Assembly (NCBI GenBank): GCA_050173015.1
Contig: JBFXLE010000009.1
Span: forward strand, 98,913 to 162,912
DNA: 64,000 nucleotides
Source of the DNA: Calditrichaceae bacterium
Lineage (GTDB): Bacteria; Calditrichota; Calditrichia; Calditrichales; JBFXGD01
Direction: 5' to 3'
In this document: piece by piece, positions 293 to 21,574 of the stretch
How the letters are laid out: every line of letters starts with the position of its first letter
Position numbering within the stretch: the first letter of the stretch is position 1
Translations under genes and position numbers: made by a program
Notes under the pieces: generated by a model
What the model saw: only the letters and a program-made list of their open reading frames with translations
The model's database searches: none
Told to the model about the DNA's origin: nothing

Positions 293-706
293 CAAAATTC
301 CTCTGAAATAATTTATATAATGCGGATCATTCTGTTTTGAACAACCACAATAATGTGGAAAATAATCCGTATTAGGCTCTAATTAATTTAGATATTAAGT
401 TAAATTTTCTGCTAAAATAAAGGAATCATATGATTTTTGCACAAAAAAGTTTCCCGAAAGTGATATTTTTTTATAAACCTGATGGTATGAATGGATGTTT
501 TTTGATATCTCATGAGGATATCAGCGGGAAATTGACCATTCAGTATATCGGGGAAAATCATGAAAAATATTTTGCGTCATATCCTTCGACAGGCGTATCT
601 TGTCAAACCAAAATCAATTCAAATTAACCGGATGACATCAATTTATTATTCTTACGATTTAAAATAATTATTTATATTTAATCTTTCTGTCAGGAAAGGA
701 AAAAAG

Positions 707-2176: not shown

Positions 2177-2267
2177 AAGTCCTTTTGGCATAAAAATTTC
2201 AATAAGGTTATCTGAGCCAGCAGGTTAGATAGAGATTAGACGATCAACCAGAGGAGAAGGAACTAGA

Positions 2268-3494
2268 GTGAATCCGGAATATGATGTCATTATTGTCGGT
2301 GGCGGTCCCGCCGGGGCGACTGCCGCGTTATACGCGAAAAGAGCCGGATTAAAAAGCTTGTTATTGGATAAAGACAAATTTCCCAGAGATAAGATCTGCG
2401 GCGACGCTGTTTCGGGAAAATCAATGAATATTCTGAAAGATCTCGGTTTGCTCGAAAAAGCATGCGCTCTGCCCGGCGCGGAAATCAGATCAATTACATT
2501 TGGCAGTCCCGCCGGCACAACGATCAATATCGGCCTGATGAGTGAAAAGCGGAAGGGGATGCCCGGCGGAATGGTCATCCGAAGGGAAGTGTTTGATCAG
2601 TTTTTACTTGCTGAAGCATCAAGAGCCGCGGATCGGGTGATCCAGGGATTTAAGGTTATAGATGTTGTTAAAGAGAACGGATTTGTACGCGGTGTTCGCG
2701 GAATTAATTCTGAAACGGCCAAAGAAGAAGTTTACCGCGGTAAAATAGTCATTGGAGCGGATGGTTTTAATTCGGTTGTGTCACGAAAAACAGGTCTTTA
2801 CCGGCACGAACCCGGCCACCTGATTATTGCCCTGAGACAGTATTATAAAAATGTTTCAGAGTTATCGGATCAGATAGAAATTCATTATTTAAAAGATGTA
2901 CAGCCGGGGTATTTTTGGGTTTTCCCGCTTGATAACGGCACGGCAAACGTTGGAATAGGAATGCTTCATGAAACGATTACAAAACGTAATATTGATCTCA
3001 AACTTTTGCTCAGGAAAGCCATTACAAGTGATAAATTCAAAGATCGTTTCGCGGAGGCGGAGCCGTTGGAGAGCCCAAAAGGCTGGAATCTTCCGATCGC
3101 CAGTAAACACAGAAAAATTCACGGCAATGGATTTCTGCTGATTGGAGACGCCGCGGGATTGATAGACCCGTTTACCGGAGAAGGTATCGGAAACGCCCTA
3201 TACTCCGCAAAAATAGCTGTCCGCTCCGCGGAGAAAGCAATTTCTTTTGATGATTATAGTGAAAAAATGCTTGCAGAATATGATCATCAGCTTTGGAAAA
3301 CAATGGGAAATGAATTTAAAACCAGTACCCGGTTACAAAAAATCGGACGTTTTCACTTCCTTTTAAATTTTGTTATAAACAGAGCAGCGCGCAGCGCTGA
3401 GGTCAGTGAGATTATCAGTGGAATGATGGCAAATCAAATACCAAAAACGAAACTGGCAAATCCGTTTTTTTATTTAAAAATTTTGTTTAGCTAA
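2268..3494 (+). CDS. Geranylgeranyl reductase family FAD-dependent oxidoreductase
   Basis: GTG start. Contains the N-terminal dinucleotide fold [16 protein letters not shown], then GADGFNSVV and [18 protein letters not shown], the typical GG-reductase family pattern. Confidence 0.75.
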
Positions 3495-3508
3495 ATTTTA
3501 TATCATTT

Positions 3509-3958
3509 ATGATAAGGATATCTAAAATGGAAGAATCTCATTACAGAAAACTCGAAAAAATGTATGCTTCGGCTCCGATCAACCATTTCTATCACCCTGA
3601 AATGGTGGTTAGTAATGGAATAAGTGAGATTACAATAACAAACCGTCCGGATTTCTTTCATGCCGCCCACGCGGTCCACGGCTCCGTATATTTTAAGATG
3701 CTGGATGACGCCGCTTTCTTTGCGGTCAATTCGCTTGTGCCCGATGTATTTGTGCTGACGGTATCATTTAATATCTATCTGATCAGACCTGTAACAGAAG
3801 GACAATTAATCTCCAGGGGCCGCGTTGTGAACGAATCTAAGCGTCTTTATATTGCCGAGTCAGAATTATATGATTCTGAGGGAAGAATCATCGCCCGCGG
3901 CAGCGGAACCTTTATGAAGAGTAAAATACCATTGTCCGCGGAAGTTGGTTACAGATAA
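3509..3958 (+). CDS. PaaI-family hotdog-fold thioesterase
   Basis: 149 aa. The HGSVYFKMLDDAAFFA segment resembles the PaaI/uncharacterized-domain-1 thioesterase core. The true start may be the internal Met at 3527. Confidence 0.55.
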   Translation: MIRISKMEESHYRKLEKMYASAPINHFYHPEMVVSNGISEITITNRPDFFHAAHAVHGSVYFKMLDDAAFFAVNSLVPDVFVLTVSFNIYLIRPVTEGQLISRGRVVNESKRLYIAESELYDSEGRIIARGSGTFMKSKIPLSAEVGYR

Positions 3959-4155
3959 TTTTCATCTTTTAATTGTTTTAAGAGCTGAGGCAAAATTGAC
4001 TATCAGTGTTTTTGATTTTTCTGACAAACTTGTTAAATTCAATAAAGAAGACCAATGGATTTGCACCGGTTCTGAAGAATGTGTTTCAGGTATATTATAT
4101 CCGATAATTTTAAGATTAAAACAGCAAAATAAATTTTCGAGAATGAGGAGAAATC

Positions 4156-5004
4156 ATGATCAAACGTATATTAGTACCCCTTGATCCGTCGCCTTACACC
4201 GATAAAGTGATAGAACTCGCCTGTAAACTGGCCAAAAACAATAAAGCTGAATTAACCGGACTGGTAATTCTTGATATACCCGGTATTGAAAAATCAATTG
4301 GACCGGTACCGGCGGGAGCGCTTTATTATGCTGAAAAACTGGAAAAGAAAAAAGAAACGCAGGCCTCAGAAAGAATAAAGGCGCTTCTTGAAAAATTCGT
4401 AGAATCCTGCAAAGCCTCCGGCGTCACTTGTCATACCGCTCATTCCCAGGGAAGCCCGAGCGAAAGAATTATCGCGGAATCAATATACTATGACGCCATC
4501 ATGGTGGGGCTGCGTACTTTTTACCACTTCCAGGCGGATGACAGGCCCGGGGATTCGCTCACCGAGATCATGAACCATTCAATTACTCCGGTTTATGGAG
4601 TCCCTGAAACATTTTCGGTGCCCGATATCCCTGCCGAAAAACTGAAAGTTCTACTGGCGTTTGACGGAAGTCTGCCGGCGGCAAGGGCCATGCAACGGCT
4701 GGCCCAGTTAGCCAACGCCGATTTAATGGAAGTGATGATTTTGACATCAAACGCGAACAAAGAGACGGCGGATTACTACCTGGATAATGCCGAAGCTTAT
4801 CTCAGGGCGCATAACTTCAAAAATATTCAAAAGACCCGGATTACCGGGAATATTATAGACGCGGTTGAAAAGAAATATCTGGATTGGGCGCACGTCGTGG
4901 TAGTCGGAGCTCACTCAAAGCAGGGTATCTTTGATTTTATGCTTGGGAGTTTGACCAAATTTCTGATCAAGGCAGATAAAAAACCCGTAATCATCGGGCA
5001 GTAG
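4156..5004 (+). CDS. Universal stress protein, tandem UspA domains
   Basis: 282 aa. It starts MIKRILVPLDPS and ends VVVGAHSKQGIFDFMLGSLTKFLIKADKKPVII. Both halves show the Usp pattern. Confidence 0.7.
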   Translation: MIKRILVPLDPSPYTDKVIELACKLAKNNKAELTGLVILDIPGIEKSIGPVPAGALYYAEKLEKKKETQASERIKALLEKFVESCKASGVTCHTAHSQGSPSERIIAESIYYDAIMVGLRTFYHFQADDRPGDSLTEIMNHSITPVYGVPETFSVPDIPAEKLKVLLAFDGSLPAARAMQRLAQLANADLMEVMILTSNANKETADYYLDNAEAYLRAHNFKNIQKTRITGNIIDAVEKKYLDWAHVVVVGAHSKQGIFDFMLGSLTKFLIKADKKPVIIGQ

Positions 5005-5064
5005 ATTTGTAAGAATGAAAGCGACTAATCGTATAAAATTTATTTTTTCGGCACTAAGCGATAA

Positions 5065-6786
5065 ATGAAAAATTTAATTTATTGTAATCCCGGAGTTTAT
5101 AAAAGGAACATGTTTATGAAAAATATTTTATCCTTAATGATGATAACGGTAACCGGATTAACAATTTTCTCGTGCGGCGGGAAACAAGGTGATGAGGTAC
5201 CTATGCTTCAGCAGAAAATTAACCAGTTCGCGTCAACCGAACTAAAATATGATGAATCTCTTCTCGACGACCGCCAAAAAATGGTCGTTGAAAAACTATT
5301 CATGGCGGCAAAAATCATGGATGAAATATACCTGGATCAAGTATATTCAAAAAATAATGATCTAAAAGCAACCCTTATGGAGGCTACAGACGAAAACAGC
5401 CGGCTCATCCTTGATTATTTTGACATCATGTTTGGTCCCTTTGACCGGCTGGACCATGATAAGCCATTTTACGGAAATGCCTCCAAACCCGCGGGCGCGA
5501 ATTTTTATCCGGAAGATATGACCAAGGAAGAATTTCAGGAATGGTTAAAAAATCATCCCGAAGATGAGCCGGCCTTTACATCGGAATTCACCGTCATCCG
5601 TCGGGATGGGGACAAACTTGTTGCCATTCCCTATTCAGAATATTATAAAGAGCCTTTGAGCAGAGCGGCAAAATATCTTCGCCAGGCCGCGGAATATGCC
5701 GATAACGCTTCCCTTAAAAAATATCTGATCACCCGGGCGGATGGATTTGAATCAAATGATTATTTCGAGAGTGACATGGCCTGGATGGATTTAAAAGATC
5801 ATTCTATCGAGTTCATCATTGGTCCCTATGAAGTTTACGAAGACGAATTATTTAACTATAAAGCATCCTTTGAGAGCTTTCTGACCTTGAAAGATCCTGC
5901 TGAAAGCGCGAAACTGGCTGTTTTTGGCAGTTATCTGAATGATATCGAAAAGAATTTGCCAATCCCCGATGAATATAAAAATTTTAGCAGAGGCAGTGAG
6001 TCACCCATTATGGTGGTCCAGGAAGTTTTTTCAGCAGGCGATACAAAGGCGGGAGTCCAGACTCTGGCATTCAATCTGCCCAATGATGAGAGAGTGCGTG
6101 AAGCCAAAGGGTCAAAAAAAGTGATGCTGAAGAATATGCATGAAGCAAAATATAATAAATTACTGTTACCGATCGCCGAGCTGATTATCGCTCCGGATCA
6201 GCTTCAGTATGTCAGTTTTGATGGTTTTTTCAATCATACTTTGATGCATGAGATGTCCCACGGAGTCGGACCGGGCAAAATCACTATTAATGGAAAACAG
6301 ACTGAGGTCAAAAAAGAACTCAAGGAAACCTATTCCAAGCTGGAAGAATGTAAAGCTGATCTCCTTGGTATGTATAACAATATGTTTATGATCAGTAAGG
6401 GCGTTTATCCCGAATCATTTGAAAAGGAAACATGGGTCACATTCCTCGCCGGTACATTTCGCTCAGTACGGTTTGGTATCAATGAAGCGCACGGCGCCGG
6501 CAACGCGATTATTTATAATTTCCTTCTGGAAAAAGGCGCGTATGCATATGATGAGGCAAGCCAGAAAGTCAGCGTCAATTTTGACCGGATATATGATGTG
6601 GTCACCGAGCTTTCTTCTCTTATATTGACAATCCAGGCGGAAGGTGATTATGAAGGGGCAAAAAAACTGATCGAAACATACGCGGTTGAGACACCTTCAA
6701 TGAAAACGCTCAGAGAAAAATTGACCGTGCTTCCGGTTGATATTAAACCGGTCTTCCAGATAGAGAAAACCCTGGCGTCGCGATAG
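5065..6786 (+). CDS. M49 (dipeptidyl-peptidase III)-like zinc peptidase, probable lipoprotein
   Basis: Has HEMSHG (HExxH) plus the downstream EECKAD motif (the EExK/RAE/D second zinc motif of M49). The lipobox-like LTIFSCGG lies near the N-terminus. The real start is probably an internal Met near 5110. Confidence 0.6.
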   Translation: MKNLIYCNPGVYKRNMFMKNILSLMMITVTGLTIFSCGGKQGDEVPMLQQKINQFASTELKYDESLLDDRQKMVVEKLFMAAKIMDEIYLDQVYSKNNDLKATLMEATDENSRLILDYFDIMFGPFDRLDHDKPFYGNASKPAGANFYPEDMTKEEFQEWLKNHPEDEPAFTSEFTVIRRDGDKLVAIPYSEYYKEPLSRAAKYLRQAAEYADNASLKKYLITRADGFESNDYFESDMAWMDLKDHSIEFIIGPYEVYEDELFNYKASFESFLTLKDPAESAKLAVFGSYLNDIEKNLPIPDEYKNFSRGSESPIMVVQEVFSAGDTKAGVQTLAFNLPNDERVREAKGSKKVMLKNMHEAKYNKLLLPIAELIIAPDQLQYVSFDGFFNHTLMHEMSHGVGPGKITINGKQTEVKKELKETYSKLEECKADLLGMYNNMFMISKGVYPESFEKETWVTFLAGTFRSVRFGINEAHGAGNAIIYNFLLEKGAYAYDEASQKVSVNFDRIYDVVTELSSLILTIQAEGDYEGAKKLIETYAVETPSMKTLREKLTVLPVDIKPVFQIEKTLASR

Positions 6787-6864
6787 CGGGTTACTTATCT
6801 GTTATACGCCGGTATCGACATAAGTATTGTATATAAGTTATAAACCGGAGGTTTGTCTTTTTGA

Positions 6865-7130
6865 AGACTCAGGGGTGGAAAGTATTCTGCCACAAGCATA
6901 GCAAATATTTTAAAAAAATCAGCTCAAAAAGCAGGAATAACAAAAACGATAACGCCGCCTACGCGGCGTTCTTGTTTTGCGACGCGGTTGCTTGCGCAGG
7001 GTAGGGATTTAAGGTATATTCAGGAGTAGTTAGGTCAAAATAGTCCCGGGAAGACTGAACTGCACCCGTTTCGAATAAGTCTATTGATTGAATAAGGAAT
7101 TCTGTTGATGATATTTTTGAAAAGGATTAG
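6865..7130 (+). pseudogene. 3' vestige of a tyrosine recombinase (integrase) gene, reading towards the cassette array
   Basis: The frame starting at 6865 reads ...GGKYSATSIANILKKSAQKAGITKTITPPTRRSCFATRLLAQGRDLRYIQE*LGQNSPGKTELH. After a frame shift it continues PVSNKSID*IRNSVDDIFEKD*. This parallels the box II C-terminus of Xer/integrase proteins (HTLRHSFATHLLE.G.DLRYIQELLGH...TTEIYTHVSNK...). It contains stops, has lost the His/Arg positions, and the catalytic Tyr codon is deleted. About three quarters of the gene is missing upstream. Confidence 0.7.
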
Positions 7131-7220
7131 TTAATTGTAAAAAAAATATATAAACAATGGTTCATACACCGCCAATTTGGGGGGATAAGAACAATGGGAT
7201 ATATACGAACGTTATGGGCA
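6951..7220 (+). repeat. Scaffold repeat copy 1: integrase vestige, hairpin, then GTT core (attI-like junction)
   Basis: About 270 bp that aligns with 11399-11669 and 20268-20540. It starts with the perfect hairpin AACGCCGC-ctac-GCGGCGTT followed by cttgtttt. It ends with the hairpin aatggttc..ccgccaatttgggggg..gaacaat and then GTTATGG at 7211. Confidence 0.85.
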
Positions 7221-7342
7221 AGGCAATGAAAGAAAACGCAATGGGAGTAATATTGTCAGGAAATAGAAAGTTGGAGACTAAAAATAGCTAATATAGATGA
7301 ATGTTTTGAGAAAATAAAAATAGATTCTAAAGAGAAAATATT

Positions 7343-7849
7343 ATGAGTATATACACAGATAAAACATATGTTGCTTTTGATGCTGATAATGATATCCACT
7401 ACTACAGATTGATGCAAGCTTGGAAAAAAAATGATAATTCTTCATTTAACTTTTATGATGCTCACGATTTGAATAATTTGATGTCTTGGTCTTCAGAAGA
7501 AACAATAAAAGCGAGACTTGCTGAAAGAATGAAAAACTCAAAAGTCTTTATTTTACTTGTAGGAAATAACACAAAATTTCTATACAAATTTGTTCGATGG
7601 GAAATTGATCAAGCTTTAAAAAGAGAAAAACCTATTATAGTTGTTAACTTAAATAAAAAGAGAAGCAGGGATACCGAACGATGTCCTGCTATTTTAAATA
7701 GTGAATTAGCGGTTCATATAAGTTTTAATCAAAAGATAATTGAATACGCAATAAATAATTGGCCTAGCTCTGAGGAGTATTACCGTAAGAACAATGAAAA
7801 AGGAGATTATTATTACAAAGATTCTGTTTATAAAGAATTAGGAATATGA
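7343..7849 (+). CDS. thsB: ThsB-like TIR domain protein (DUF1863/MTH538 TIR-like), type II Thoeris
   Basis: 168 aa. KTYVAFDADND...SKVFILLVGNNTKF..FVRWEIDQALKREKPIIVVNL matches the DUF1863 TIR-like pattern, including the conserved WEI glutamate. Its stop overlaps the next start (ATGA). Confidence 0.7.
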   Translation: MSIYTDKTYVAFDADNDIHYYRLMQAWKKNDNSSFNFYDAHDLNNLMSWSSEETIKARLAERMKNSKVFILLVGNNTKFLYKFVRWEIDQALKREKPIIVVNLNKKRSRDTERCPAILNSELAVHISFNQKIIEYAINNWPSSEEYYRKNNEKGDYYYKDSVYKELGI

Positions 7850-8751
7850 AAATGGGTATTTACAGATGGTTGTCGAAATATAAATCTATCCTTACAGATT
7901 TGATGTCTGGTATAGGCCTTTTTTGGCTATTTGTTGAAATAGCAAGTTATTCGACAAATGGACAAATTGACAAATACACGAAAAGCATAGCTTTTTTCTT
8001 AGTAGGGTTTGTATTAATCATTATTATAGTGCTAATAAAAAATAGGCCTAGAACATCTTTTTCCTATAAATTACGAGATAAAGATAATTTCATAGAAGTT
8101 AAAGTAGGTGATGCTTTTGATAATAATGGAGCTTTAATAATTCCATTCAATAATTATCTTGATGTATCTCTCGGTGGTAATGTAAAAAAGGCTAATAGTC
8201 TGCAAAACAAACTTATAAAACAATATTATTTTGATAAAGAAGAACATTTAGTTCAAGATATTTTAAAAAAAACAAATCTAACTGCACCATTTGATATTGG
8301 TACGACTGTAGAAATTGAACAAAAAGGTAAAAGTTTTTTTCTACTAGTTAATTCTCATAAAAAAGAAAATAACCGAGTTGTATCGACAGTTGATGACTTC
8401 TTATTGAGTTTATCGAAGGTTTGGGATTTCATTGCTTTGGAATCCGGAAGAAAAAGTATAGTAACAATTCCAATAATAAGTACAAATCACGGCAGAATAA
8501 CAGACTTAAACAGAATGAATGCGATAAAAGAAATTATTAATAGCTACGTTGAGGCTTCAAAGTTTCTAAATATTGCAGATAAATTGATAATCAGCATTTT
8601 TCCAGACGATATAAATAAAGGAAATATTAAACTTGATGAAGTAGATGAATATTTAAAGTTTCAGTGTAATCATTATAGAAAAGTTCATTTTTCACCTAAA
8701 CTAGAAGGTAAAGAAGTAAGTCCTTCAGTTACAAAGGGTATTAATAATTAA
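7846..8751 (+). CDS. thsA: ThsA-like effector: two N-terminal TM helices plus a Macro-like domain (type II Thoeris)
   Basis: 301 aa. Two hydrophobic helices (GIGLFWLFVEIASY and IAFFLVGFVLIIIIVLI) are followed by IEVKVGDAFDNNGALIIPFNN, which resembles the Macro-domain start (GDIT...AIVNAAN). It is translationally coupled to the TIR gene. Confidence 0.6.
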   Translation: MKMGIYRWLSKYKSILTDLMSGIGLFWLFVEIASYSTNGQIDKYTKSIAFFLVGFVLIIIIVLIKNRPRTSFSYKLRDKDNFIEVKVGDAFDNNGALIIPFNNYLDVSLGGNVKKANSLQNKLIKQYYFDKEEHLVQDILKKTNLTAPFDIGTTVEIEQKGKSFFLLVNSHKKENNRVVSTVDDFLLSLSKVWDFIALESGRKSIVTIPIISTNHGRITDLNRMNAIKEIINSYVEASKFLNIADKLIISIFPDDINKGNIKLDEVDEYLKFQCNHYRKVHFSPKLEGKEVSPSVTKGINN

Positions 8752-8811
8752 TTACAAGAATAATAGGAAATACAATAGGAAATTTTAATTAAGGAAATTA
8801 AGAAGCCCAGC

Positions 8812-8942
8812 CCATAACAATGCATATACTTTATGGCGGGTTCCGTTATGAAAATGAGTATTTTAGTTTCAAATATAAATCAGTGTGGACAGAAAGATTT
8901 GTCTTCCAAAGTCCGCCACAAAGCATATGCTTCCCGTTATGC
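8812..8942 (+). repeat. attC-like site 1
   Basis: The left arm cATAACaatgcatatactttatggcgg pairs with the right arm ccgccacaaagcatatgcttcccGTTATgc. It is an imperfect inverted repeat with a bulge and about 75 bp of variable centre. Confidence 0.65.
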
Positions 8943-8967
8943 ACAAGCTAAAAAAAGAATATAGTTA

Positions 8968-9825
8968 ATGATTATAATAAATGACAAGTCAATAGAGAAA
9001 CTCAGAGACCTGATAAATGAAGAAACTGAATATCGGTCAGGTCCGAAACTCATCGAGTTTTTTAAAGACTTGGGCTTCAATGACTCTTATGGTCAAGGAT
9101 TTCCTTCTCGTTGGAAATATACTGATGATCGCCTTCGCAAAATTAACGGTAAACCAGAATTAGATAAGTGCATCAGAAAATTATTCAATCCAGTTAATTT
9201 CATTGGCAAAACTTCTGAACTTGATAACCACATCAAAAATCTGAATCAATATTTAGCTTTTGATAAATGGCAGGTAGTTCGTAATGGTACAGAAATAACT
9301 TTCAAAAAGAAAGATAAGGTTGAACTGCATGATGATTATGCAGAACTGAAAGCAGATGAATTTTTAGATAAAGAATTTGATGATATTTCAATAGATGCTC
9401 TAGGTCTTGATTCTATAGTTTCAGAAGTTCTCAAAATTCGTTTTGTAGAAATAAAGAATTGTTTTGCAGCAAAAGCACATTTGTCGGTCATTTTTCTTTC
9501 AGGCAGTAGTCTTGAAGGAATCCTACTAGGAATTGCTTTGAAGTCACCTACGGAATTCAACCAAGCTAAATCTGCACCTAAAGACAAGGAAGGCAAAGTC
9601 AAACAATTTCCTGATTGGACTTTGAGCCAACTAATTGACGTTACGTTTGAAGTTGGTCTCATCAAGGATGATGTGAAAAAATTTAGTCATGCTCTTCGAG
9701 ACTTCAGAAACTACATTCACCCATATCAGCAAGTAAGCTCGGGATTTAATCCTGATCACCATACAGCAAAAATTTGCTTTCAAGTATTGAAGGCAGGAGT
9801 ATTTCAACTATCAAAAAACAAATAA
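8968..9825 (+). CDS. Possible HEPN-domain protein (Abi-like RNase candidate) with an uncharacterized N-terminal domain
   Basis: 285 aa. The C-terminal helical region contains SHALRDFRNYIHPYQQ, an R-x6-H arrangement compatible with the HEPN Rx4-6H motif. The N-terminus (EYRSGPKLIEFFKDLGFNDSYGQGFPSRWKYT) is reminiscent of N-terminal domains of Abi/HEPN proteins. No search was run. Confidence 0.4.
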   Translation: MIIINDKSIEKLRDLINEETEYRSGPKLIEFFKDLGFNDSYGQGFPSRWKYTDDRLRKINGKPELDKCIRKLFNPVNFIGKTSELDNHIKNLNQYLAFDKWQVVRNGTEITFKKKDKVELHDDYAELKADEFLDKEFDDISIDALGLDSIVSEVLKIRFVEIKNCFAAKAHLSVIFLSGSSLEGILLGIALKSPTEFNQAKSAPKDKEGKVKQFPDWTLSQLIDVTFEVGLIKDDVKKFSHALRDFRNYIHPYQQVSSGFNPDHHTAKICFQVLKAGVFQLSKNK

Positions 9826-10164
9826 ATGGATACTACACAATTTAAAAACGGCTATTTCATTGAGAGAGTTTATCAACCAATCTCAGAAACTGAATTCAAG
9901 TGTCGACTAATAGTTAAATCAAAGGCGAATAATCAAGAAATTACAGGAATAGAGACTAAAATAAATACCGTTGAGATTGGTCAGGGATTAGCAGACTCAC
10001 AATTTAGCGTTAATCCAATAAGTTGGGAGAGATATTTGAACCAGACAATTACAATGTTATTCAACATGTTGATGCTTCGTCTGAATATTACCGACTTGCA
10101 TAATGTTGACGGAGAAGATAAAATTTCTGAATTCTTTGACGAAAATCCGTTTCACCAAAATTAA
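9826..10164 (+). CDS. Hypothetical protein, partner of the putative HEPN protein
   Basis: 112 aa. Its ATG directly abuts the upstream TAA (TAAATG). It lies in the same cassette, between attC-1 and attC-2. I recognise no motif. Confidence 0.5.
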   Translation: MDTTQFKNGYFIERVYQPISETEFKCRLIVKSKANNQEITGIETKINTVEIGQGLADSQFSVNPISWERYLNQTITMLFNMLMLRLNITDLHNVDGEDKISEFFDENPFHQN

Positions 10165-10174
10165 AAAAGCCAGT

Positions 10175-10305
10175 GCCTAACATCGGCTATAGCAAATGCG
10201 GGCTAAAGTGCTATAATGAAAGTAATTACACATAATAAACCAACTGCTAGTCGGACAAGTAAGTACCTTGAAACCCCGCACTTTCCATAGCCATGACCGT
10301 TAGCT
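10175..10305 (+). repeat. attC-like site 2
   Basis: GCCTAACatcggctatagcaaatgcgggc pairs with ccccgcactttccatagccatgaccGTTAGCt. GCCTAAC/GTTAGC is the textbook inverse-core/core pair. Confidence 0.7.
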
Positions 10306-10345
10306 GCAAGGTTAAGAGCGATACTGCAAAATTGAAAATTAAGAA

Positions 10346-11230
10346 ATGATTTTAGACTATTTAAATAAAACATTTAATAACAGAGAAATCGTATTGATTT
10401 CCTATTTGACAATTTTCATTATATGGACACTTACACAGAAAAATATTAGACAGTCCATAGTGTCTGTGATTAAAGCATTTATGGCATGGAAGATACTTGT
10501 TTCAATATTTGTGTTGTTACTATATATTGCATTGATTGCTTTTGGATTATTTAAAATTGGACTTTGGGATAAATCCATGATTAAAGATACTGTTTATTGG
10601 ACTTTTGGGGTCGGATTCATTATTATGATGAATTTTGACAAAGCATTGAAGGAAGAACACTATTTTAAGAACCTTGTCAAAGAAAATTTTAAAGTCCTTA
10701 TAATCATTGAATTTATAGTTGGAATTTATGTTTTTGGTATCATCACTGAATTTATTTTAATGCCATTTGTGATTCTATTTTCAATGTTATTAGGATACAC
10801 TGAAGTTTATAAAGAGCATGGACAAGTTCGCAAATTTTTAAATGGAATCTTTGGCATCATAGGTACGATTTATTTAATTTATTCCGGTTATCATATTTAC
10901 TCTGATTTTACTGGATTTGCAACTCTGGGGAATCTTAAAACATTTTTATTCCCTTTAATAATGTTTGTTCTATTTTTACCATTTGCATATTCCTTTGCAC
11001 TATTGGCTCATTACGAGAGCTTATTCGTTCGATTAGGTTTTTTCCTTAAAGACAAAAAATTGAGAAGATTCGCTAAGTGGAGAATATTATTGTCAGTAAA
11101 TTTTAGCATTTTAAGATTAAAACGAATAACACCTGGAATGTTATTTAGTGACTGTTCTACTAGAGAAGATATAAAAAATGAGATAAAAAATAAAATAAAC
11201 CCAGCAGCTAACACACAATATAGCCAATAA
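10346..11230 (+). CDS. Polytopic membrane protein, unknown function (single-gene cassette)
   Basis: 294 aa with about 7-8 hydrophobic segments (for example IVLISYLTIFIIWTL, ILVSIFVLLLYIALIAFGLF, FILMPFVILFSMLLGY). Its last codons overlap the inverse core of attC-3. Confidence 0.55.
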   Translation: MILDYLNKTFNNREIVLISYLTIFIIWTLTQKNIRQSIVSVIKAFMAWKILVSIFVLLLYIALIAFGLFKIGLWDKSMIKDTVYWTFGVGFIIMMNFDKALKEEHYFKNLVKENFKVLIIIEFIVGIYVFGIITEFILMPFVILFSMLLGYTEVYKEHGQVRKFLNGIFGIIGTIYLIYSGYHIYSDFTGFATLGNLKTFLFPLIMFVLFLPFAYSFALLAHYESLFVRLGFFLKDKKLRRFAKWRILLSVNFSILRLKRITPGMLFSDCSTREDIKNEIKNKINPAANTQYSQ

Positions 11231-11340
11231 GGGTTTCAGTGGTATGCAAAGGGTTGTAGTGTAGCCCGCTCCAACTTTTCGTGTAACTTGATAGGAAATC
11301 ACCCGCAATCCCTTACTGGCCATATTGTCAAGCGTTAGCT
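11207..11340 (+). repeat. attC-like site 3 (subtype Y)
   Basis: GCTAACacacaatatagccaataaggg pairs with cccttactggccatattgtcaagcGTTAGCt. It shares the gcaatcccttac right arm and the gtaacttgata centre with the sites at 20082 and 28024. Confidence 0.7.
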
Positions 11341-11669
11341 CCAAGGCTAAAAAATAGAAACAAAAAGAATAAAATATTTGCCAAAAGGATGAAAATAGAA
11401 CGCCGCCTATGCGGCGTTATTGTTTTGCGACGCGGTTGCTTGCGCAGGGTACGGATTTAAGATATATTCAGGAGTAGTTATGTCATATTAGTCCCGGGAC
11501 GACTGAACTGCACACGTCTCAAATAAGTCAATTGATTGAATAAGGAATTCTGTTGATGATATTTTTGAAAGGGATTAGTTAATCGTAAAAAAAATATATA
11601 AACAATTGTTCATATACCGCTGATTTGGGTGGATAAGAACAATAACATATACACGCACGTTAGGTTGCA
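11341..11669 (+). repeat. Scaffold repeat copy 2: leader, integrase vestige, hairpin, GTT core
   Basis: Starts immediately after the attC-3 core. It translates as TPPMRRYCFATRLLAQGTDLRYIQE*. It carries the hairpin AACGCCGC-ctat-GCGGCGTT followed by attgtttt, and ends GTTAGGT at 11659, 25 bp before the next ATG. Confidence 0.85.
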
Positions 11670-11683
11670 TTAAAAAAGAAACC

Positions 11684-12268
11684 ATGAAACTATATCACAG
11701 ATACAACATAAAGAGAAAACAAGAACATTTATTTTTGGAGTTTATCTTGAATAATATTCCAGGAATAAATTATTTAAAAGAGAATTATCGTCTTACAGAA
11801 AATGAATATGATTCATCAATTGAGATAAAACCCATAATTGATTCATTAAAAAATGACACTTGGTTACCAAAAAAGCGTAAACAAAATTGCATTGACATTT
11901 TACAGGACATTAAACTTAATCATGACAAGGTCGTAGTATTTGAATCGGTTAATAAAATATCATTTGATTTCACTATTAAAATAGATAGTGACTTGTTTTT
12001 CTTTGAATTACACGAAGACCAACACAAGAAGTTAAAAGTAAATAGACAGTCAAAAATATTTGATATCCAAGGAAATGAAATTTTTGTTCCTCGTTATTTA
12101 CAAAGATTATTAAAGGATATTTGGCGCTGGGAGAATCTTGACAACTACAAGATAATTTGGGCTGACTGGTTTATTTCATCATCAAATAAACTTTCTAACT
12201 TGTTGGAAAAAGGAAAAATCGAATACGGAATAGATAATACATTTCAATTTAAAAACTTAGGAATATGA
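11684..12268 (+). CDS. Hypothetical protein, possibly a DUF559/Vsr-like (PD-(D/E)xK-fold) endonuclease
   Basis: 194 aa. SFDFTIKIDSDLFFFELHEDQHKK followed by RYLQRLLKDIWRWENL loosely resembles the DF...(hydrophobic)E.DG..H...D..R..L pattern of DUF559. This is weak, by-eye evidence only. Confidence 0.3.
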   Translation: MKLYHRYNIKRKQEHLFLEFILNNIPGINYLKENYRLTENEYDSSIEIKPIIDSLKNDTWLPKKRKQNCIDILQDIKLNHDKVVVFESVNKISFDFTIKIDSDLFFFELHEDQHKKLKVNRQSKIFDIQGNEIFVPRYLQRLLKDIWRWENLDNYKIIWADWFISSSNKLSNLLEKGKIEYGIDNTFQFKNLGI

Positions 12269-12717
12269 ATATTGAAGAATTGGAACAAAAGATTGCGAAA
12301 CTTAGAAACGAAATAAAAAAGGATACTCTAGAACTTGAGAATGTTCCCGAAAGATTTATTTCAGTAATCAAAGGAGAACTGAAAACAAAAGAAGGTAGAT
12401 TAATTGATTTGGAGTTAAAACTGGATGATTTAATTGAAAATGGAATTACTGATAGGCTGCAAAAGCCAATTGATGAATTACAAGAGAAAATTAAATCGTT
12501 TATTCTTGATTATCAATTTCAATATCCACAGGACAAAGAAATGTTTATCTATCAAATTGCATTTGAAGAAAATGATGATGAACTCTTGATAAGCTTAAAA
12601 CCAAAGGAAAAAACCACAAATCGATTGAACAAATACAACAAGGATTTACTAAAAGTTACAATAGAGAACAAAGTAATACAAGAACCAAAAGCTACTGACC
12701 TTTTATTAAGACTTTAA
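12265..12717 (+). CDS. Hypothetical coiled-coil protein
   Basis: 150 aa. ATGA start/stop overlap with the upstream ORF. The N-terminal 80 aa are heptad-like and charged (EELEQKIAKLRNEIKKDTLELEN...). No motif recognised. Confidence 0.5.
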   Translation: MNIEELEQKIAKLRNEIKKDTLELENVPERFISVIKGELKTKEGRLIDLELKLDDLIENGITDRLQKPIDELQEKIKSFILDYQFQYPQDKEMFIYQIAFEENDDELLISLKPKEKTTNRLNKYNKDLLKVTIENKVIQEPKATDLLLRL

Positions 12718-12792
12718 AGCACTTTTCAATTAAAAAAGTTAAATCACTTGACCTTGTATTCTTAGGAGTTCCCTTAATCGCTGAATATAGCC

Positions 12793-12932
12793 ATGACAAA
12801 TATCAATAGAAACAAATATCAAACAACCTTTTCGTTTTGACTCAGATTTCCAAAGATAAAAAGAAAGAAATTCTTGAATATATTGCAGAAAAATTCAATC
12901 AGAGTATAAAAATCGAATTTGTGAAGAAATAA
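12793..12932 (+). pseudogene. Possible frameshifted small ORF at the end of the cassette
   Basis: ATG at 12793 gives MTNINRNKYQTTFSF then a stop. The -1 frame continues LTQISKDKKKEILEYIAEKFNQSIKIEFVKK*. That stop (12930-12932) lies inside the inverse core of attC-4, mirroring the overlap of the 3' end of ORF 10346-11230 with the inverse core of attC-3. Confidence 0.25.
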
Positions 12933-13074
12933 CGCAACCTAGCACGCAATAAAAAACATAGGGCAGAAAGTGCAAAAATTGAACGACATAACATTTAATA
13001 AACGACTTGGTAACTTGACAGGGAAGTGCTTCGAAATGCCAAACGTTTCATATACGTAACCGATAGCGTTCATT
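12928..13074 (+). repeat. attC-like site 4 (subtype X)
   Basis: AATAACgcaacctagcacgcaataaaaaacatagggca pairs imperfectly with tgccaaacgtttcatatacgtaaccgatagcGTTcATT. It shares aataacgc and gaaatgccaaacg with the site at 21575. The core is weaker than in the other sites. Confidence 0.5.
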
Positions 13075-13149
13075 GTAAGGAGACAAAACAACCGTCAGAA
13101 TAATTATGGTATTTTTGCTGCATGAAGAAAAAAGAAAATATGGAAATAG

Positions 13150-13227
13150 CCACCGCACAAATGGCATATTTGGTTTTTGCCGACGCACAGCCAAACGCTG
13201 AAAAAACCAAAAGAGCCATTTCTTGCC
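13150..13227 (+). repeat. IR-B1: structured inverted repeat of about 75 bp forming the 5' leader of hsdR
   Basis: The arms aaatggcatatttggttttt and aaaaaccaaaagagccattt are 17/20 complementary around a spacer of about 23 nt (gccgacgcacagccaaacgctg). It is homologous to 21722-21795 through to the start codon. Confidence 0.75.
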
Positions 13228-13251
13228 ATCTCACGACTGAAAGATAATGAT

Positions 13252-16098
13252 ATGACAACATATAAAAATCAAAATCCTGAACAAATAGCCAGAGACAAAA
13301 TTGACAAAATGTTAATTGAAGCTGGTTGGATTGTTCAATCTAAAAATGAAGTTGACTTGGGTGCAGGCAGAGGTGTTGCGTTGAGAGAATACCAAACGGA
13401 AACAAAATTTGCGGATTATGTGCTGTTTGTTGACAAAAACCCTGTTGGAATTATTGAGGCAAAAAAAGAAGACGAAGGACATAAACTAACCGTAGCGGAA
13501 GACCAAGCCTCTGAATATGCCAAAGCAAAACTAAAATATTTGGATAACGACCCATTGCCTTTTGTTTTTGAGAGTACCGGAACAATAACCCGTTTTAGAG
13601 ATACACGAGACCCAAAACCAAGAGGGCGACATATTTTTTGGTTTTACCGTCCCGAAACATTGGCGGAATGGCTACAAAAAGATAAAAGTTTAAGAGGTAG
13701 ATTATTAGATATTCCGCAATTAAATGAGACTGGGCTTCGCCCTGCTCAAATTAAGGCGATTAATAACCTTGAACAATCTTTTAAAAAGAACAAGCCAAAA
13801 GCTTTAATACAAATGGCTACCGGAGCAGGTAAAACTTTTACTGCCTGTACTTTTGTGTATCGCTTATTGGAACACGCCAAAGCCAAACGGATTTTATTTT
13901 TGGTTGACACCAAAAACTTAGGAGAACAAGCAGAACAGGAGTTTATGGCTTTTCAGCCCAACGACAGCAATCGCAAATTCACAGAATTGTATAATGTACA
14001 GCGTCTTACTTCAAGCTACATAGCAAGCGATAGTCAGGTTTGTATCTCTACCATTCAACGGATGTATGCCATTTTAAAAGGTGAAGAACTAGACGAAGGA
14101 GCCGAAGATACAAACCCGAACGAATCGACCTGGATGGAACAACAGCGAAATAAAAAACAGGCAATGCCTGTGGAATATTCTGCCAAAGTACCCATTGAAC
14201 AATTCGATTTTATTGTAATTGATGAATGCCACCGCTCTATTTACAATCTTTGGAAACAAGTGTTGGATTATTTCGATGCTTTCCTTATCGGCTTAACTGC
14301 CACACCCGATAAGCGAACTTTTGGCTTTTTTGAGGAAAATGTAGTGAGCGAATATACCTATGAAGAATCTGTGTTGGATGGTGTAAATGTTCCTTACGAT
14401 GTGTACAATATTGAAACTGAAATTTCGCAAAAAGGCAGTGTGATAAAAGCAGGTTGGTTTGTGGACAGACGAGATAAGCTCACCCGAAAAACGCGTTGGC
14501 AACAAGAAGATGAAGACACCGAATATTTGAAAAACGATTTGGATAAAAAGGTCGTTAATCCAAGCCAGATACGGAATATTATTCGCCAATACAAAAAAGC
14601 ATTGGAAACCGAAATTTTCCCGAACAGAAAAGACGAAAATGGAGAATACGAAGTTCCTAAAACACTGGTTTTTGCAAAAACTGACAGCCACGCGGATGAT
14701 ATAATCAAAATCATTCGTAAAGAATTTGACGAAGGCGATGATTTCTGCAAAAAACTGACTTATAAAATAAAAGAAGACCCAAAATCGGTGTTAAACCGTT
14801 TTCGGAATTCATATCATCCCCGCATTGCGGTTACGGTAGATATGATTGCAACGGGAACCGATGTAAAACCTTTGGAAGTGTTGTTGTTTATGCGTGATGT
14901 TAAAAGCACCAACTACTTTGAACAAATGAAGGGTAGAGGAACACGCACCATTAACAAAGATGCTTTTCAGGCAAACAACACCAATGTAAAAGGGGCTTGC
15001 AAAACCCATTTTATTATTGTGGATGCAGTTGGCGTAACAAAGTCGAAGAAAACCGACAGCCGGCCTTTGGAACGCAAACCAACTGTAGCCTTAAAAGATT
15101 TATTGGGAGCGGTAACAATGGGAGTTACCGAAGAAGATTTGTTTCTTTCGCTTGCAAATCGTTTGATACGATTAGAAAAAGAAATTACCGACAAGGAAAA
15201 AGATAAATTACTGGAACATTCCAAAGGCAAAAATCTGAAACAAATCAGCAAAGAATTATTATCGGCTTTTGATAAAGATGAAATTGAAAACAGAGCACAG
15301 GAAAAAATTGAAAAATTCTGTAAAGACGCCCTACAGGGCGTCTCTTCTGCTGCCGATTTATCTCCGGCACAAATAGAATCTTTCCGACAGGACGCACAGA
15401 AAGAATTGATTAATACCGCCGCTTCTACTTTTAACGGAAAGCTGAACGATTATATTGAAAAAGTGCGTATGGAACACGAGCAAATTATCGACAGCCACAA
15501 TATCGACACCGTAACAAAATCGGAATGGGACACCGCTTCGGTGGATAAAGCCAAAGAAACTGTAAAAGATTTTAACGAATACCTCGAAGCCAATCAGGAC
15601 GAGATAAAAGCATTGACCATTTTTTACAAACAACCCTACAACCGCCGAAACATTACCTTTAAAATGATTAAAGATGTGTTTGATAAACTGAAATTGGATA
15701 AACCCACCCTTGCCCCCGATTATGTTTGGGCGGCATACAGCCAATTGGAAGAGGTAAAAAGCAAACAACCGATTGACGAACTCACCGCGTTAATTTCGTT
15801 AATTCGCAGGGCTTGCGGAATTGACAGCGAGTTGAAAGCTTTTGATTCCACCATTGACGAAAATTTCAAAAACTGGATTTTCAAACAAAACGCAGGCAAG
15901 CACAACCGCTTTACAACCGAACAAATGGACTGGCTGCGAGAACTGAAAAATCACGTAGTAAATTCGTATCACATAGAAATTGAAGACCTCGATTATACAC
16001 CCTTTGATGAAAAAGGAGGACGTGGCAAAATGTACCAACTCTTTGGTGCCGAAATGAACGATATTATTAATGAACTTAACGAGGTATTAGCAGCATAA
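13252..16098 (+). CDS. hsdR: Type I restriction enzyme R subunit (HsdR), with an EcoEI-type C-terminal domain
   Basis: The N-terminus KIDKMLIEAGWIV...ADYVLFVD..PVGIIEAKKE is the HsdR_N nuclease fold. It also has helicase motif I (MATGAGKTFT), DECH (IVIDECHRS) and TATP, plus a C-terminal tail like EcoEI_R_C. I prefer the ATG at 13252 over the track start at 13177, which lies inside IR-B1. Confidence 0.85.
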   Translation: MTTYKNQNPEQIARDKIDKMLIEAGWIVQSKNEVDLGAGRGVALREYQTETKFADYVLFVDKNPVGIIEAKKEDEGHKLTVAEDQASEYAKAKLKYLDNDPLPFVFESTGTITRFRDTRDPKPRGRHIFWFYRPETLAEWLQKDKSLRGRLLDIPQLNETGLRPAQIKAINNLEQSFKKNKPKALIQMATGAGKTFTACTFVYRLLEHAKAKRILFLVDTKNLGEQAEQEFMAFQPNDSNRKFTELYNVQRLTSSYIASDSQVCISTIQRMYAILKGEELDEGAEDTNPNESTWMEQQRNKKQAMPVEYSAKVPIEQFDFIVIDECHRSIYNLWKQVLDYFDAFLIGLTATPDKRTFGFFEENVVSEYTYEESVLDGVNVPYDVYNIETEISQKGSVIKAGWFVDRRDKLTRKTRWQQEDEDTEYLKNDLDKKVVNPSQIRNIIRQYKKALETEIFPNRKDENGEYEVPKTLVFAKTDSHADDIIKIIRKEFDEGDDFCKKLTYKIKEDPKSVLNRFRNSYHPRIAVTVDMIATGTDVKPLEVLLFMRDVKSTNYFEQMKGRGTRTINKDAFQANNTNVKGACKTHFIIVDAVGVTKSKKTDSRPLERKPTVALKDLLGAVTMGVTEEDLFLSLANRLIRLEKEITDKEKDKLLEHSKGKNLKQISKELLSAFDKDEIENRAQEKIEKFCKDALQGVSSAADLSPAQIESFRQDAQKELINTAASTFNGKLNDYIEKVRMEHEQIIDSHNIDTVTKSEWDTASVDKAKETVKDFNEYLEANQDEIKALTIFYKQPYNRRNITFKMIKDVFDKLKLDKPTLAPDYVWAAYSQLEEVKSKQPIDELTALISLIRRACGIDSELKAFDSTIDENFKNWIFKQNAGKHNRFTTEQMDWLRELKNHVVNSYHIEIEDLDYTPFDEKGGRGKMYQLFGAEMNDIINELNEVLAA

Positions 16099-17636
16099 TG
16101 AGAGAAGATTGGATTGACGTTGAATTAAAAGATGTTTGCCTAAGTTCAAAGGGAAAGAAACCAAGTGTTTTAGAAAAAAATAATTCTGAAACTGCTAATG
16201 TGCCATATATAAATATCAAAGCTTTTGAGAAAGGTATAATAGAAGAATACACTGATGGTGAAAAATGCAATTTATGTGAAGATGGTGACTTGTTAATGGT
16301 TTGGGATGGTGCAAGGGCTGGGCTTACAGGTAAAGCTAAAAAAGGTGCTGTTGGTTCAACACTAATGAGAATTGAAGAAGTAAAAGGTATTGAAAAGGAA
16401 TATTTATATTATTTTCTTTTATCACTTTTTACAAAGATTAATACAAATCCAAGAGGTGTTGGTATTCCACATGTTGAACCACGAATACTATGGTTGTCAA
16501 AAGTATTAATTGTTAGCAGTCCCATCCAACGAGCAATAGTATCCAAAATCGAAGCCCTGTTTTCCGATTTGGACAACGGCATCGCCAATTTAAAAAAAGC
16601 ACAGGAGCAATTAAAAATATACCGTCAAGCGGTTTTGAAAAAGGCCTTTGAGGGCGAACTCACAAAAGAATGGCGTGAAAAGATTGTACAGACGCCCAAT
16701 TTGGGCGTATCAACGCCCCTGCCAACAGCCGAAGAACTGCTAAAACAAATAAAAGAAGAACGCCAAAACCACTACAACCAACAAATTGAAGACTGGAAAA
16801 AAGCGGTTAAGGAATGGGAGAAAAATGGGAAAGTTGGGAAGAAGCCAAGTAAGCCTAAGCAGCAAAAAGAATTGCCACCTTTAAATGAGGAAGAATTGAA
16901 TGAGCTGCCGAAATTGCCAAAGTCAATGGTATGGACACAACTTGGAAATGTGGTTTGGTCTGTAAAAGATGGACCTCATTTTAGCCCTAAATATTCAAAA
17001 ACTGGTATACCCTTTATCTCAGGTGGGAATATTAGACCAGAAAAAATTGACTTTGAAAAAGTAAAATATATTTCAGAAGAGCTTCATAAGGAACTAAGTC
17101 GAAGATGTAAACCACAATTAGATGACATTCTATACACCAAAGGCGGAACAACTGGAATTGCAAAAGTTAATACATATAAATTTGATTTTAATGTTTGGGT
17201 GCATGTAGCAGTATTAAGACCAATCCAAATGATTTTACCATTATATTTACAACATGTTTTAAATTCTTCTCATTGTTATAAACAATCGCAAGAATATACA
17301 CATGGGGTTGGTAATCAAGATTTAGGTTTAACAAGAATGATTTTAATCACACTGCCTATTTGTTGTAAAGAAGAACAAACCCAAATCGTCCAAGAAATAG
17401 AAAGCCGTTTATCGGTTTGCGACAAAGTAGAGCAAAGCATAACCGAAAGCCTTGAAAAAGCCGAAGCCCTTCGCCAAAGCATTCTTAAAAAAGCATTTGA
17501 GGGCAAATTATTAAGCGAAGCTGAAATAGAACAATGCAAAAAGGCAGCCGATTACGAACCTGCGGCAAAATTGTTGGAACGAATAAAACAGGAAAAAATA
17601 AATAAGGATAATAATAAAAAAACAAAATCAAAATAA
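16098..17636 (+). CDS. hsdS: Type I restriction-modification specificity subunit (HsdS)
   Basis: 512 aa. Two target-recognition halves are each followed by the conserved helix LKKAFEG(E/K)L (at about aa 180 and about aa 470). TAATG overlap with hsdR. The central linker carries a REP-like insertion. Confidence 0.85.
   Translation: MREDWIDVELKDVCLSSKGKKPSVLEKNNSETANVPYINIKAFEKGIIEEYTDGEKCNLCEDGDLLMVWDGARAGLTGKAKKGAVGSTLMRIEEVKGIEKEYLYYFLLSLFTKINTNPRGVGIPHVEPRILWLSKVLIVSSPIQRAIVSKIEALFSDLDNGIANLKKAQEQLKIYRQAVLKKAFEGELTKEWREKIVQTPNLGVSTPLPTAEELLKQIKEERQNHYNQQIEDWKKAVKEWEKNGKVGKKPSKPKQQKELPPLNEEELNELPKLPKSMVWTQLGNVVWSVKDGPHFSPKYSKTGIPFISGGNIRPEKIDFEKVKYISEELHKELSRRCKPQLDDILYTKGGTTGIAKVNTYKFDFNVWVHVAVLRPIQMILPLYLQHVLNSSHCYKQSQEYTHGVGNQDLGLTRMILITLPICCKEEQTQIVQEIESRLSVCDKVEQSITESLEKAEALRQSILKKAFEGKLLSEAEIEQCKKAADYEPAAKLLERIKQEKINKDNNKKTKSK
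16691..16708. repeat. REP-like palindrome a (partial), in frame inside hsdS
   Basis: GACGCCCAATTTGGGCGT, translated as QTPNLGVS in the HsdS central linker. Confidence 0.8.
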
Positions 17637-17687
17637 TTGTGAAACGCGTTGGACGTATTTGTCGCATTTGACGCGTTGGACGCATTG

Positions 17688-17716
17688 GTAGAGACGCCCA
17701 ATTTGGGCGTCTCTAC
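17688..17716. repeat. REP-like palindrome b (29 nt)
   Basis: GTAGAGACGCCCAATTTGGGCGTCTCTAC. It lies between hsdS and the RAYT gene, flanked by cgttggacg motifs and gatccc/gacgac short repeats. Confidence 0.85.
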
Positions 17717-17788
17717 GACGACGATCCCTACGATCCCGATCCCGACGACGACAATATCGTTCACGTTCACAATAACGAAAACAAAAAT

Positions 17789-18400: not shown

Positions 18401-18415
18401 ATTGAAAGAAATAAT

Positions 18416-20081: not shown

Positions 20082-20209
20082 GCTAACACGCGGTATAAAA
20101 CATTGGGGTTTAAGTATTTATTCGAGCGTTCTACCCCGCATCAAGTTCGGTGTAACTCGACAGGATAGTAGCCCGCAATCCCTTACGAGTCATACACTCA
20201 AAGTTAGTT
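20082..20209 (+). repeat. attC-like site 5 (subtype Y)
   Basis: GCTAACacgcggtataaaacattgggg pairs with cccttacgagtcatacactcaaaGTTAGTt. The centre is homologous to attC-3 and attC-7. Confidence 0.65.
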
Positions 20210-20540: not shown

Positions 20541-20572
20541 TTAGAAGTAACTTACATAAAAAAGGGTGACTT

Positions 20573-21569: not shown

Positions 21570-21574
21570 CGCCA

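Follow-up and report, generated by a model that had tools for sequence, protein, structure and literature searches.

A mobile integron cassette pairing an AbiJ-NTD1/HEPN-type protein with a clade-restricted 112-aa protein in a defense-rich attC array of a Calditrichaceae bacterium

Results

Two abutting genes in one cassette

We analyzed a 64,000-nt stretch (the window) of a metagenome-assembled genome (MAG) of a Calditrichaceae bacterium (assembly GCA_050173015.1, contig JBFXLE010000009.1 of 167,860 bp, forward-strand positions 98,913–162,912), in which an integron cassette carries two open reading frames (ORFs), ORF285 and ORF112. All coordinates refer to the window. The cassette (8937–10299, plus strand, ∼1363 bp) consists of a 31-nt leader, ORF285 (8968–9825, plus strand), ORF112 (9826–10164, plus strand) and its own attC site. 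ORF285 encodes a two-domain protein of 285 aa, which NCBI lists as the 284-aa hypothetical protein MGD9488106.1. ORF112 encodes a small acidic protein of 112 aa that is also annotated as hypothetical, and it is an accessory gene of one clade of this HEPN family, as described below. The TAA stop codon of ORF285 (9823–9825) is followed immediately by the ATG of ORF112 (TAAATG, zero spacing).

An initial annotation, made from the DNA alone, had described two abutting ORFs of 285 and 112 aa enclosed by two attC sites as one cassette. Both ORFs were confirmed at these exact coordinates, and the single cassette is upheld by two 131-nt sites and by homology breakpoints (see below). No plus-strand promoter was found in the cassette by a sigma-70 scan, which gave fewer hits than shuffled sequences and possibly does not cover the promoter type of this host. 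An Rfam scan of 6800–13200 detected no RNA families. The AlphaFold2 model of ORF285 (mean predicted local distance difference test score, pLDDT, 93.8) shows two domains separated by a disordered linker (residues 120–147).

The C-terminal domain of ORF285 is of the HEPN type

The C-terminal part of ORF285 (aa 145–285; 9400–9822, plus strand) is a DUF4145-like HEPN domain. In the model it has the HEPN fold, a four-helix bundle (149–167, carrying R158 and E161; 171–192, carrying E183; 234–250; and 264–283) with an insert (194–228) between helices 2 and 3. The peptide ALRDFRNYIHPYQQ, in which the initial annotation had noticed an R-x6-H motif, is present in ORF285, with R244 encoded at 9697–9699 and H251 at 9718–9720. 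The two residues delimit a catalytic-type motif, R244-D-F-R247-N248-Y-I-H251 (9697–9720, plus strand), at the end of helix 3. Both the location of the Rx4-6H motif, where helix 3 ends, and the helix arrangement agree with those of HEPN domains (PMC3710099).

A lone Rx4-6H motif is without evidential weight, since ∼0.74 such motifs are expected by chance in a protein of the composition of ORF285, and its conservation therefore needed testing. In an alignment of 72 ORF285 homologues, with identities down to 33%, R158, E161, E183, R247, N248, H251 and T266 were invariant (72/72), and R244 was kept in 69 proteins (96%). The R244-x6-H251 pair is accompanied by the invariant glutamate E183 in helix 2.

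A Foldseek search of the PDB returned only HEPN proteins at target template modeling (TM) scores of 0.5–0.68. The best match was TT1696 (1ufb; probability 0.99, target TM score 0.68), and further matches were the HepT toxin of MntA-HepT (6m6u, 7bxo), AF_0298 (2hsb) and the HEPN domain of sacsin (3o10). No non-HEPN fold appeared among the meaningful matches. DUF4145 (PF13643), which is a family of the HEPN clan (PMC3710099), was matched by 35 of the 72 homologues at E ≤0.1. These matches invariably spanned the region from helix 1 to helix 3, and the best reached E = 7.5e-06. When the ORF285 and ORF112 family alignments were used as profiles to search PDB sequences, no matches were obtained at E ≤10. 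The HEPN assignment, which was tentative when first made, is now supported by the conserved motif, by structural matches that are exclusively HEPN and by the DUF4145 matches.

The N-terminal domain of ORF285 resembles AbiJ-NTD1

The N-terminal domain (aa 1–118; 8968–9321, plus strand) consists of helices and a beta-hairpin, is AbiJ-NTD1-like and is predicted to be a sensor or regulatory domain. Its residues 19–117 matched positions 20–127 of the PADLOC Stk2 model (PDLC02375) at E = 5e-10, and the PADLOC AbiJ model was matched at E = 0.003 over model positions 9–113 only. An "abortive infection family protein" from an Acinetobacter plasmid shares 37% identity with this domain over 110 aa (E = 5e-21). 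The C-terminus of the plasmid protein is Abi_C, the AbiJ-type HEPN domain, and the BLASTP alignment covered residues 4–107 only. PHROG matches were those of the N-terminal domain to phage proteins, with nothing above threshold for ORF285. The protein carries an AbiJ-type N-terminal domain and gave no match to the Abi_C (PF14355) C-terminal domain. Because the N-terminal domain is common to Stk2 and ORF285, the same putative sensor appears to be coupled to different effectors.

The ORF285 family is large and associated with restriction-modification genes

In one search, ORF285 homologues formed 4770 clusters at 90% identity; an exhaustive search yielded 1862 clusters at 50% identity. Members 65–70% identical to ORF285 occur in MAGs assigned to many phyla, among them Bacteroidota, Calditrichota, Chloroflexota, Zixibacteria, Patescibacteria and an Asgard archaeon, a spread that indicates extensive horizontal transfer. 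No homologues were detected in GenBank phages. Homologues are found within restriction-modification (R-M) operons, some of them between the type I genes hsdS and hsdR. Others adjoin type IIG Eco57I/MmeI-like enzymes, together with RhuM, GmrSD and Schlafen genes. The placement in R-M operons makes the defense context of the family robust.

ORF112 belongs to a small family of its own

The ORF112 family comprises 36 clusters, all of ∼112 aa and 47–96% identical. The protein is acidic (pI 4.8) and ends in a conserved C-terminal tail, FFxENPFH. Its AlphaFold2 model (pLDDT 88.6) has the topology beta-beta-beta-alpha-alpha. No relatives were found in Pfam, NCBIfam, PHROGs or PDB sequences, and no homologues in IMG/VR or GenBank phages. 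A profile search for distant relatives added eight further 112-aa clusters and no fusions. Foldseek against the PDB gave only partial overlaps with Endonuclease V (query TM ≤0.44), and against the viral folds of BFVD only uncharacterized proteins; both results were treated as uninformative.

A weak PADLOC match of ORF112 to CARF3 (E = 5e-4, 45 residues) received no support from the model fold and was rejected. A 111-aa ORF downstream of the ORF285 homologue in one locus (L007; homologous loci are designated by L numbers) is an unrelated ArsR-type regulator. In two other loci (L096, 380–1100; L098, 2350–3100) a short K/P/T-rich ORF precedes the ORF112 homologue, as part of a unit that is repeated locally.

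Co-occurrence of the two genes is asymmetric

ORF112 lies directly after an ORF285 homologue in 20 of the 24 informative ORF112 loci. In every paired locus the two genes abut with 0-nt spacing or overlap by 4 nt (ATGA), and this junction is conserved over ∼11 distinct pairs, in which ORF112 identity falls to as low as 47%. Seen from the other gene, ORF112 is present at 5 of 80 genomic ORF285 homologues and absent at 75. The unpaired homologues are followed by heterogeneous genes, with no conserved substitute for ORF112. A neighbor-joining tree placed the paired ORF285 proteins in one clade, with one paired outlier (L095) outside it. One unpaired locus, L004, is nested in the paired clade; its protein is 80% identical and has all catalytic residues intact. 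In L099 and L089, a frameshifted ORF112 stands beside an intact ORF285. The pair thus recurs in other genomes, confined to one clade of the ORF285 family.

ORF285 and ORF112 of the paired clade co-diverge: their pairwise distances are correlated with r = 0.79, a value reached by 1 of 2000 Mantel permutations, and ORF112 evolves ∼1.6 times faster than ORF285. Given the conserved abutting or overlapping junction and the co-divergence, a functional link between ORF112 and ORF285 is likely within this clade.

The pair moves as an integron cassette

The cassette is bordered by two attC sites, each a 131-nt imperfect palindrome on the plus strand with a 5′ end in TAAC and a 3′ end beginning with GTTA. 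The upstream site (8812–8942; R″ CCATAAC, R′ GTTATGC, crossover G8936|T8937) is part of the preceding Thoeris cassette. The site of the cassette itself (10175–10305) has R″ GCCTAAC, R′ GTTAGCT and the crossover G10299|T10300. A third imperfect palindrome of this kind lies at 11206–11340, and additional attC sites were found near 20.1, 21.6 and 28.1 kb of the window. The sites were recovered by an attC scan with relaxed scoring; strict scoring gave none. Folding of the upstream site was more stable for the bottom strand (−21.3 kcal/mol, z −3.2) than for the top strand (−16.1), and the same was found at 10175–10305 (−17.9 vs. −11.2 kcal/mol) and 11206–11340 (−23.0 vs. −18.0 kcal/mol). The greater stability of the bottom strand at all three tested sites matches the expectation for attC.

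The cassette is 92.7% identical in DNA to a locus of Brumimicrobium salinarum (L001) across 8935–10308, from the upstream R′ GTT to just beyond the downstream R′ GTT. Against four other Bacteroidota or Ignavibacteria loci (L002, L003, L006 and L081–L084) homology starts at 8933–8934. The neighbors of the cassette, including the upstream genes, differ among L001–L003, L005, L006 and L089. Because the homology to the Brumimicrobium locus begins and ends at the attC crossover sites, we concluded that the pair moves as one cassette between phyla. The Calditrichaceae cassette is 92–93% identical in DNA to Bacteroidota cassettes (L001, L002 and L003), which points to recent cassette transfer between Calditrichota and Bacteroidota.

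Sites resembling attC, of 130–132 nt, flank the pair in L002, L005, L006/L081 and L089, and L001 and L091 have kept the attC site of the cassette itself after the pair. In 76 genomic loci whose upstream sequence was long enough, a directly upstream attC-like site was found only in members of the paired clade and in one other locus. No integron integrase (IntI) was present among the larger ORFs scanned in the 64-kb window, and the tyrosine-recombinase traces in the window are decayed fragments only, within a 340-nt repeat described below. The array is either a cluster of attC sites without an integrase or one whose integrase lies outside the window.

The surrounding array is rich in defense genes

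The attC array extends over ∼6.9–28.2 kb, has a low GC content (34%) and is bounded by a peptidase M49 gene and a VWA gene. Directly upstream of the HEPN pair is a complete type II Thoeris cassette (7343–8751), composed of ThsB TIR (7343–7849; PADLOC E = 1e-73) and ThsA TM-Macro (7846–8751; E = 1.7e-39), whose genes overlap by 4 nt. Downstream, between the attC sites at 10175–10305 and 11206–11340, is a cassette for a 294-aa multi-pass membrane protein (10346–11230). No family could be assigned to this protein, the sole match being a weak one to PADLOC 2TM-TIR (E = 0.03).

A type I R-M system (13177–19936) within the array encodes HsdR, HsdS, a 203-aa unknown ORF and HsdM. Three copies of a 30-nt palindrome, GTAGAGACGCCCAATTTGGGCGTCTCTAC, at 16686, 17688 and 18116, are located within and past hsdS and could be sites of hsdS shuffling or phase variation. 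A NACHT/STAND NTPase gene (21796–27897, 2033 aa) has attC-like flanks at 21574–21704 and ∼28030–28145 and appears to be one very large cassette. The defense setting that the initial annotation had suggested for the cassette thus holds, with Thoeris, type I R-M and NACHT neighbors here and with homologues of ORF285 in R-M operons elsewhere.

A repeat of ∼340 nt, with copies 83–93% identical, is found at the 5′ ends of cassettes (6886–7227, 11334–11675, 20203–20546 and 28134–28205), and copies 2–4 start exactly at the GTTAG of an attC R′. Conceptually translated, the repeat gives the decayed C-terminus of a tyrosine recombinase (PF00589 positions 118–162, E = 1.2e-5, just sub-threshold). The repeat could be a duplicated attI/integrase remnant or a mobile promoter-bearing element.

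Two other loci showed related neighborhoods. The L089 locus (positions 1–10195 of a 3.57-Mb metagenome contig) is a second attC array of defense cassettes, with 132-nt attC sites; besides the HEPN pair it carries Tsp45I-like and HinP1I-like type II R-M systems, each with its methylase, as well as GmrSD proteins and a reverse transcriptase. In L085/L086, which represent one metagenomic lineage, 48 nt separate the pair from an upstream gene for a 511-aa reverse transcriptase (RVT_1), which may be a defense-associated cassette neighbor or an operon partner.

Discussion

Starting from what is shown above on the identities of the domains, the conserved motif, the boundaries and mobility of the cassette and the asymmetric co-occurrence of the genes, we infer a ribonuclease activity and a trigger for ORF285 and a role for ORF112. 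It is probable, in our view, that ORF285 is an abortive infection (Abi)-type single-chain sensor-effector and ORF112 a translationally coupled accessory protein of one clade, and that together they form a mobile cassette. One chain would hold an AbiJ-NTD1-like domain, a flexible linker and a DUF4145-like HEPN ribonuclease domain. By analogy with characterized HEPN defense proteins, the HEPN domains would pair or oligomerize, so that R244/R247, N248 and H251 make up a composite active site. Until a phage or plasmid component is met, the enzyme would be kept inactive by its N-terminal domain; RNA cleavage would then stop translation and abort the infection.

ORF112 would have been gained once, by one clade. 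Its most likely role is to bind ORF285 and adjust the activation of that protein, whether by adding a brake or by serving as an adaptor that alters what is sensed, and not as an indispensable antitoxin. The latter is unlikely because the effector persists without ORF112 across the family and inside the clade. ORF285, ORF112 and their attC site would constitute a promoterless integron cassette within a defense attC array, and the clade that acquired ORF112 would be the lineage that circulates in this form. For the role of ORF112, we rank a regulator or accessory protein above an antitoxin, and an antitoxin above a passenger. The effector-plus-modulator pair of the initial annotation survives in part: tight coupling and co-divergence in one clade speak for it, and the 75 of 80 homologues without ORF112, the loss inside the clade and the lone ORF112 genes speak against it as a general arrangement.

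A more specific proposal, which we put forward only tentatively, is that ORF112 is the founding member of a new HEPN regulator class, docking on the AbiJ-NTD1/DUF4145 effector, e.g., via the FFxENPFH tail, and serving as an antitoxin-like brake or as a trigger adaptor. If true, a self-contained single-gene Abi protein would have become a two-component module suited to a promoterless, phylum-hopping cassette.

Several observations weigh against the interpretation of ORF285 as a sensor-effector ribonuclease with an accessory partner. Nothing in Pfam or NCBIfam scored above threshold for the whole of ORF285, and the isolated HEPN domain reached 12.5 bits against PF13643 (E = 0.15), below the gathering cut-off of 23.1 bits, so that the domain is a divergent relative of DUF4145 and not a member by the curated threshold. 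The Foldseek E-values for ORF285 are weak (≥0.6). The strictly invariant arginine is R247, in the non-canonical spacing Rx3H (R-N-Y-I-H), and Rx6H is obtained only via R244. In the literature, no RNase activity, toxicity or phage phenotype has been reported for the AbiJ-NTD1 + DUF4145 family. On the side of the partner, ORF112 occurs without ORF285 in L087/L088, in L096 and, as a pseudogene, in L098, which would also fit a function independent of ORF285. Assembly errors may account for the frameshifts in L089 and L099; the split ORF112 of L089 was down-weighted as evidence of loss because it results from a single frameshift in a 9x long-read assembly.

The Rx3H spacing could also mean that the HEPN-like domain is a non-nuclease binding or regulatory module, comparable with the non-catalytic HEPN domains found with nucleotidyltransferases or with MtlR. 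Some HEPN families are indeed inactive (PMC3710099, table), and the top structural neighbors of ORF285 include substrate-binding HEPN domains such as 1jog. We nevertheless consider this very improbable. The absolutely invariant R-N-x-x-H, together with the conserved helix-2 glutamate, is the catalytic HEPN signature, mutation of the R or H of the DUF4145 domain abolishes defense in RAZR (PMC13017515), and the genes of this family reside in a defense island and in R-M operons.

The pair could be a toxin-first type II toxin–antitoxin (TA) module like RnlA-RnlB and LsoA-LsoB, in which a labile ORF112 would neutralize a constitutively dangerous ORF285 by binding; the pair would stabilize the attC array and fire on host translation shut-off. 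The toxin-first order, the tight coupling through TAAATG or ATGA, the small size and acidity of ORF112 and the co-divergence of the two proteins all fit such a module, and the conserved C-terminal tail could plug a site. Chromosomal integron arrays frequently contain TA modules, and the RnlB and LsoB antitoxin genes are located downstream of their HEPN toxin genes, the same order as here. However, the obligate co-occurrence of a type II TA pair is not observed: most genomic loci have neither ORF112 nor a conserved downstream substitute, L004 keeps its catalytic residues after a loss nested in the paired clade, two loci combine a frameshifted ORF112 with an intact ORF285, and ORF112 also stands alone. 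ORF112 lacks a DNA-binding domain, is not similar to RnlB in sequence or in fold and does not resemble known antitoxins; ORF285 does not have the RnlA domain layout, and the partner is missing from most of its family. No phage-encoded mimic was found in IMG/VR or GenBank phages. We therefore regard a TA module as unlikely.

Still less likely is that ORF112 is an unrelated passenger, brought in when two cassettes were fused by loss of the intervening attC and now co-travelling. Cassette fusion is known in integrons. The HEPN family functions without ORF112 elsewhere, and among the lone ORF112 loci, L087/L088 have a GTTAT-like site ∼30 nt upstream of the gene. However, a simple attC deletion would not give an exact 0-nt or 4-nt ATGA junction over ∼11 pairs, and ORF112 is almost never found elsewhere, its whole family amounting to 36 clusters. 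The lone genes of L096 and L098 may have another origin, since their junction AAAAATAAATTATGAC resembles the 3′ end of ORF285 and suggests that they are deletion derivatives of the pair.

The locus can be compared with known systems. Anantharaman et al. (2013) described AbiJ-NTD1 in fusions with the AbiJ-type HEPN domain, DUF4145 HEPN, Ser/Thr/Tyr kinases and other effectors (PMC3710099), and on the basis of this modularity we describe ORF285 as an AbiJ-NTD1 + DUF4145-like HEPN protein. The initial annotation had seen no obvious match to a named system; this is not upheld, as the architecture was already in the 2013 work and the N-terminus matches Stk2 and AbiJ of PADLOC. The AbiJ-NTD1 + DUF4145 class (PMC3710099) resembles ORF285 in its two-domain architecture and in its association with R-M operons and defense islands. 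It is a class of comparative genomics without a named system, and no partner gene or integron-cassette form has been described for it; ORF285 further differs in falling under the Pfam DUF4145 threshold. A full-length Shewanella homologue of ORF285 (L015, 61% identity) probably corresponds to the example gi 113972064 of Anantharaman et al. AbiJ-NTD proteins were proposed in the same work to be self-contained units of a sensor and a suicide RNase (PMC3710099).

AbiJ of Lactococcus lactis and other Abi_C proteins share with ORF285 the homologous N-terminal domain, the sensor-then-HEPN plan and a similar size (281 vs. 285 aa), whereas the HEPN domain of ORF285 is of a different family and does not align over the C-terminal half. 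Stk2 of Staphylococcus (PDLC02375) has the N-terminal domain in common, but its effector is a Ser/Thr kinase and not a HEPN domain. Experiments have demonstrated a defense role for the DUF4145-type HEPN proteins RAZR/PD-T7-4 (PMC13017515), BxaP and Ishtar. RAZR/PD-T7-4 is a single-gene system with a non-catalytic N-terminal domain, like the plan of ORF285, and it causes abortive infection through ssRNA cleavage, for which the R and H of its DUF4145-type HEPN domain are required (PMC13017515). ORF285 differs from RAZR, whose N-terminus is a zinc finger and whose motif is R146...H154, and it gave no match to the PADLOC PD-T7-4 model at E ≤1.

The carrier also has precedents. Darracq et al. (2024) described compact one- or two-gene defense systems in attC cassettes, including HEPN and AbiJ-like ones (Taranis, Esos), in Vibrio superintegrons with an IntI gene (bioRxiv 10.1101/2024.07.02.601686). 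The present cassette differs in belonging to a Calditrichaceae MAG array with 131-nt attC sites and no IntI among the larger window ORFs scanned, and in encoding a different protein family. Effector type and carrier type are thus known, and what is new in detail is the family of the 112-aa partner and the occurrence as a cross-phylum cassette.

The locus does not overturn current understanding. The ORF285 family is very large and widely transferred, and the cassette is a compact, portable form in which the 2013 prediction of a sensor plus suicide RNase can be tested. With its clade-restricted ORF112, the family also provides a natural experiment in which a single-chain Abi protein gains an additional regulator. 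The locus is further evidence that defense systems are stockpiled in attC arrays outside Proteobacteria and swapped across phyla.

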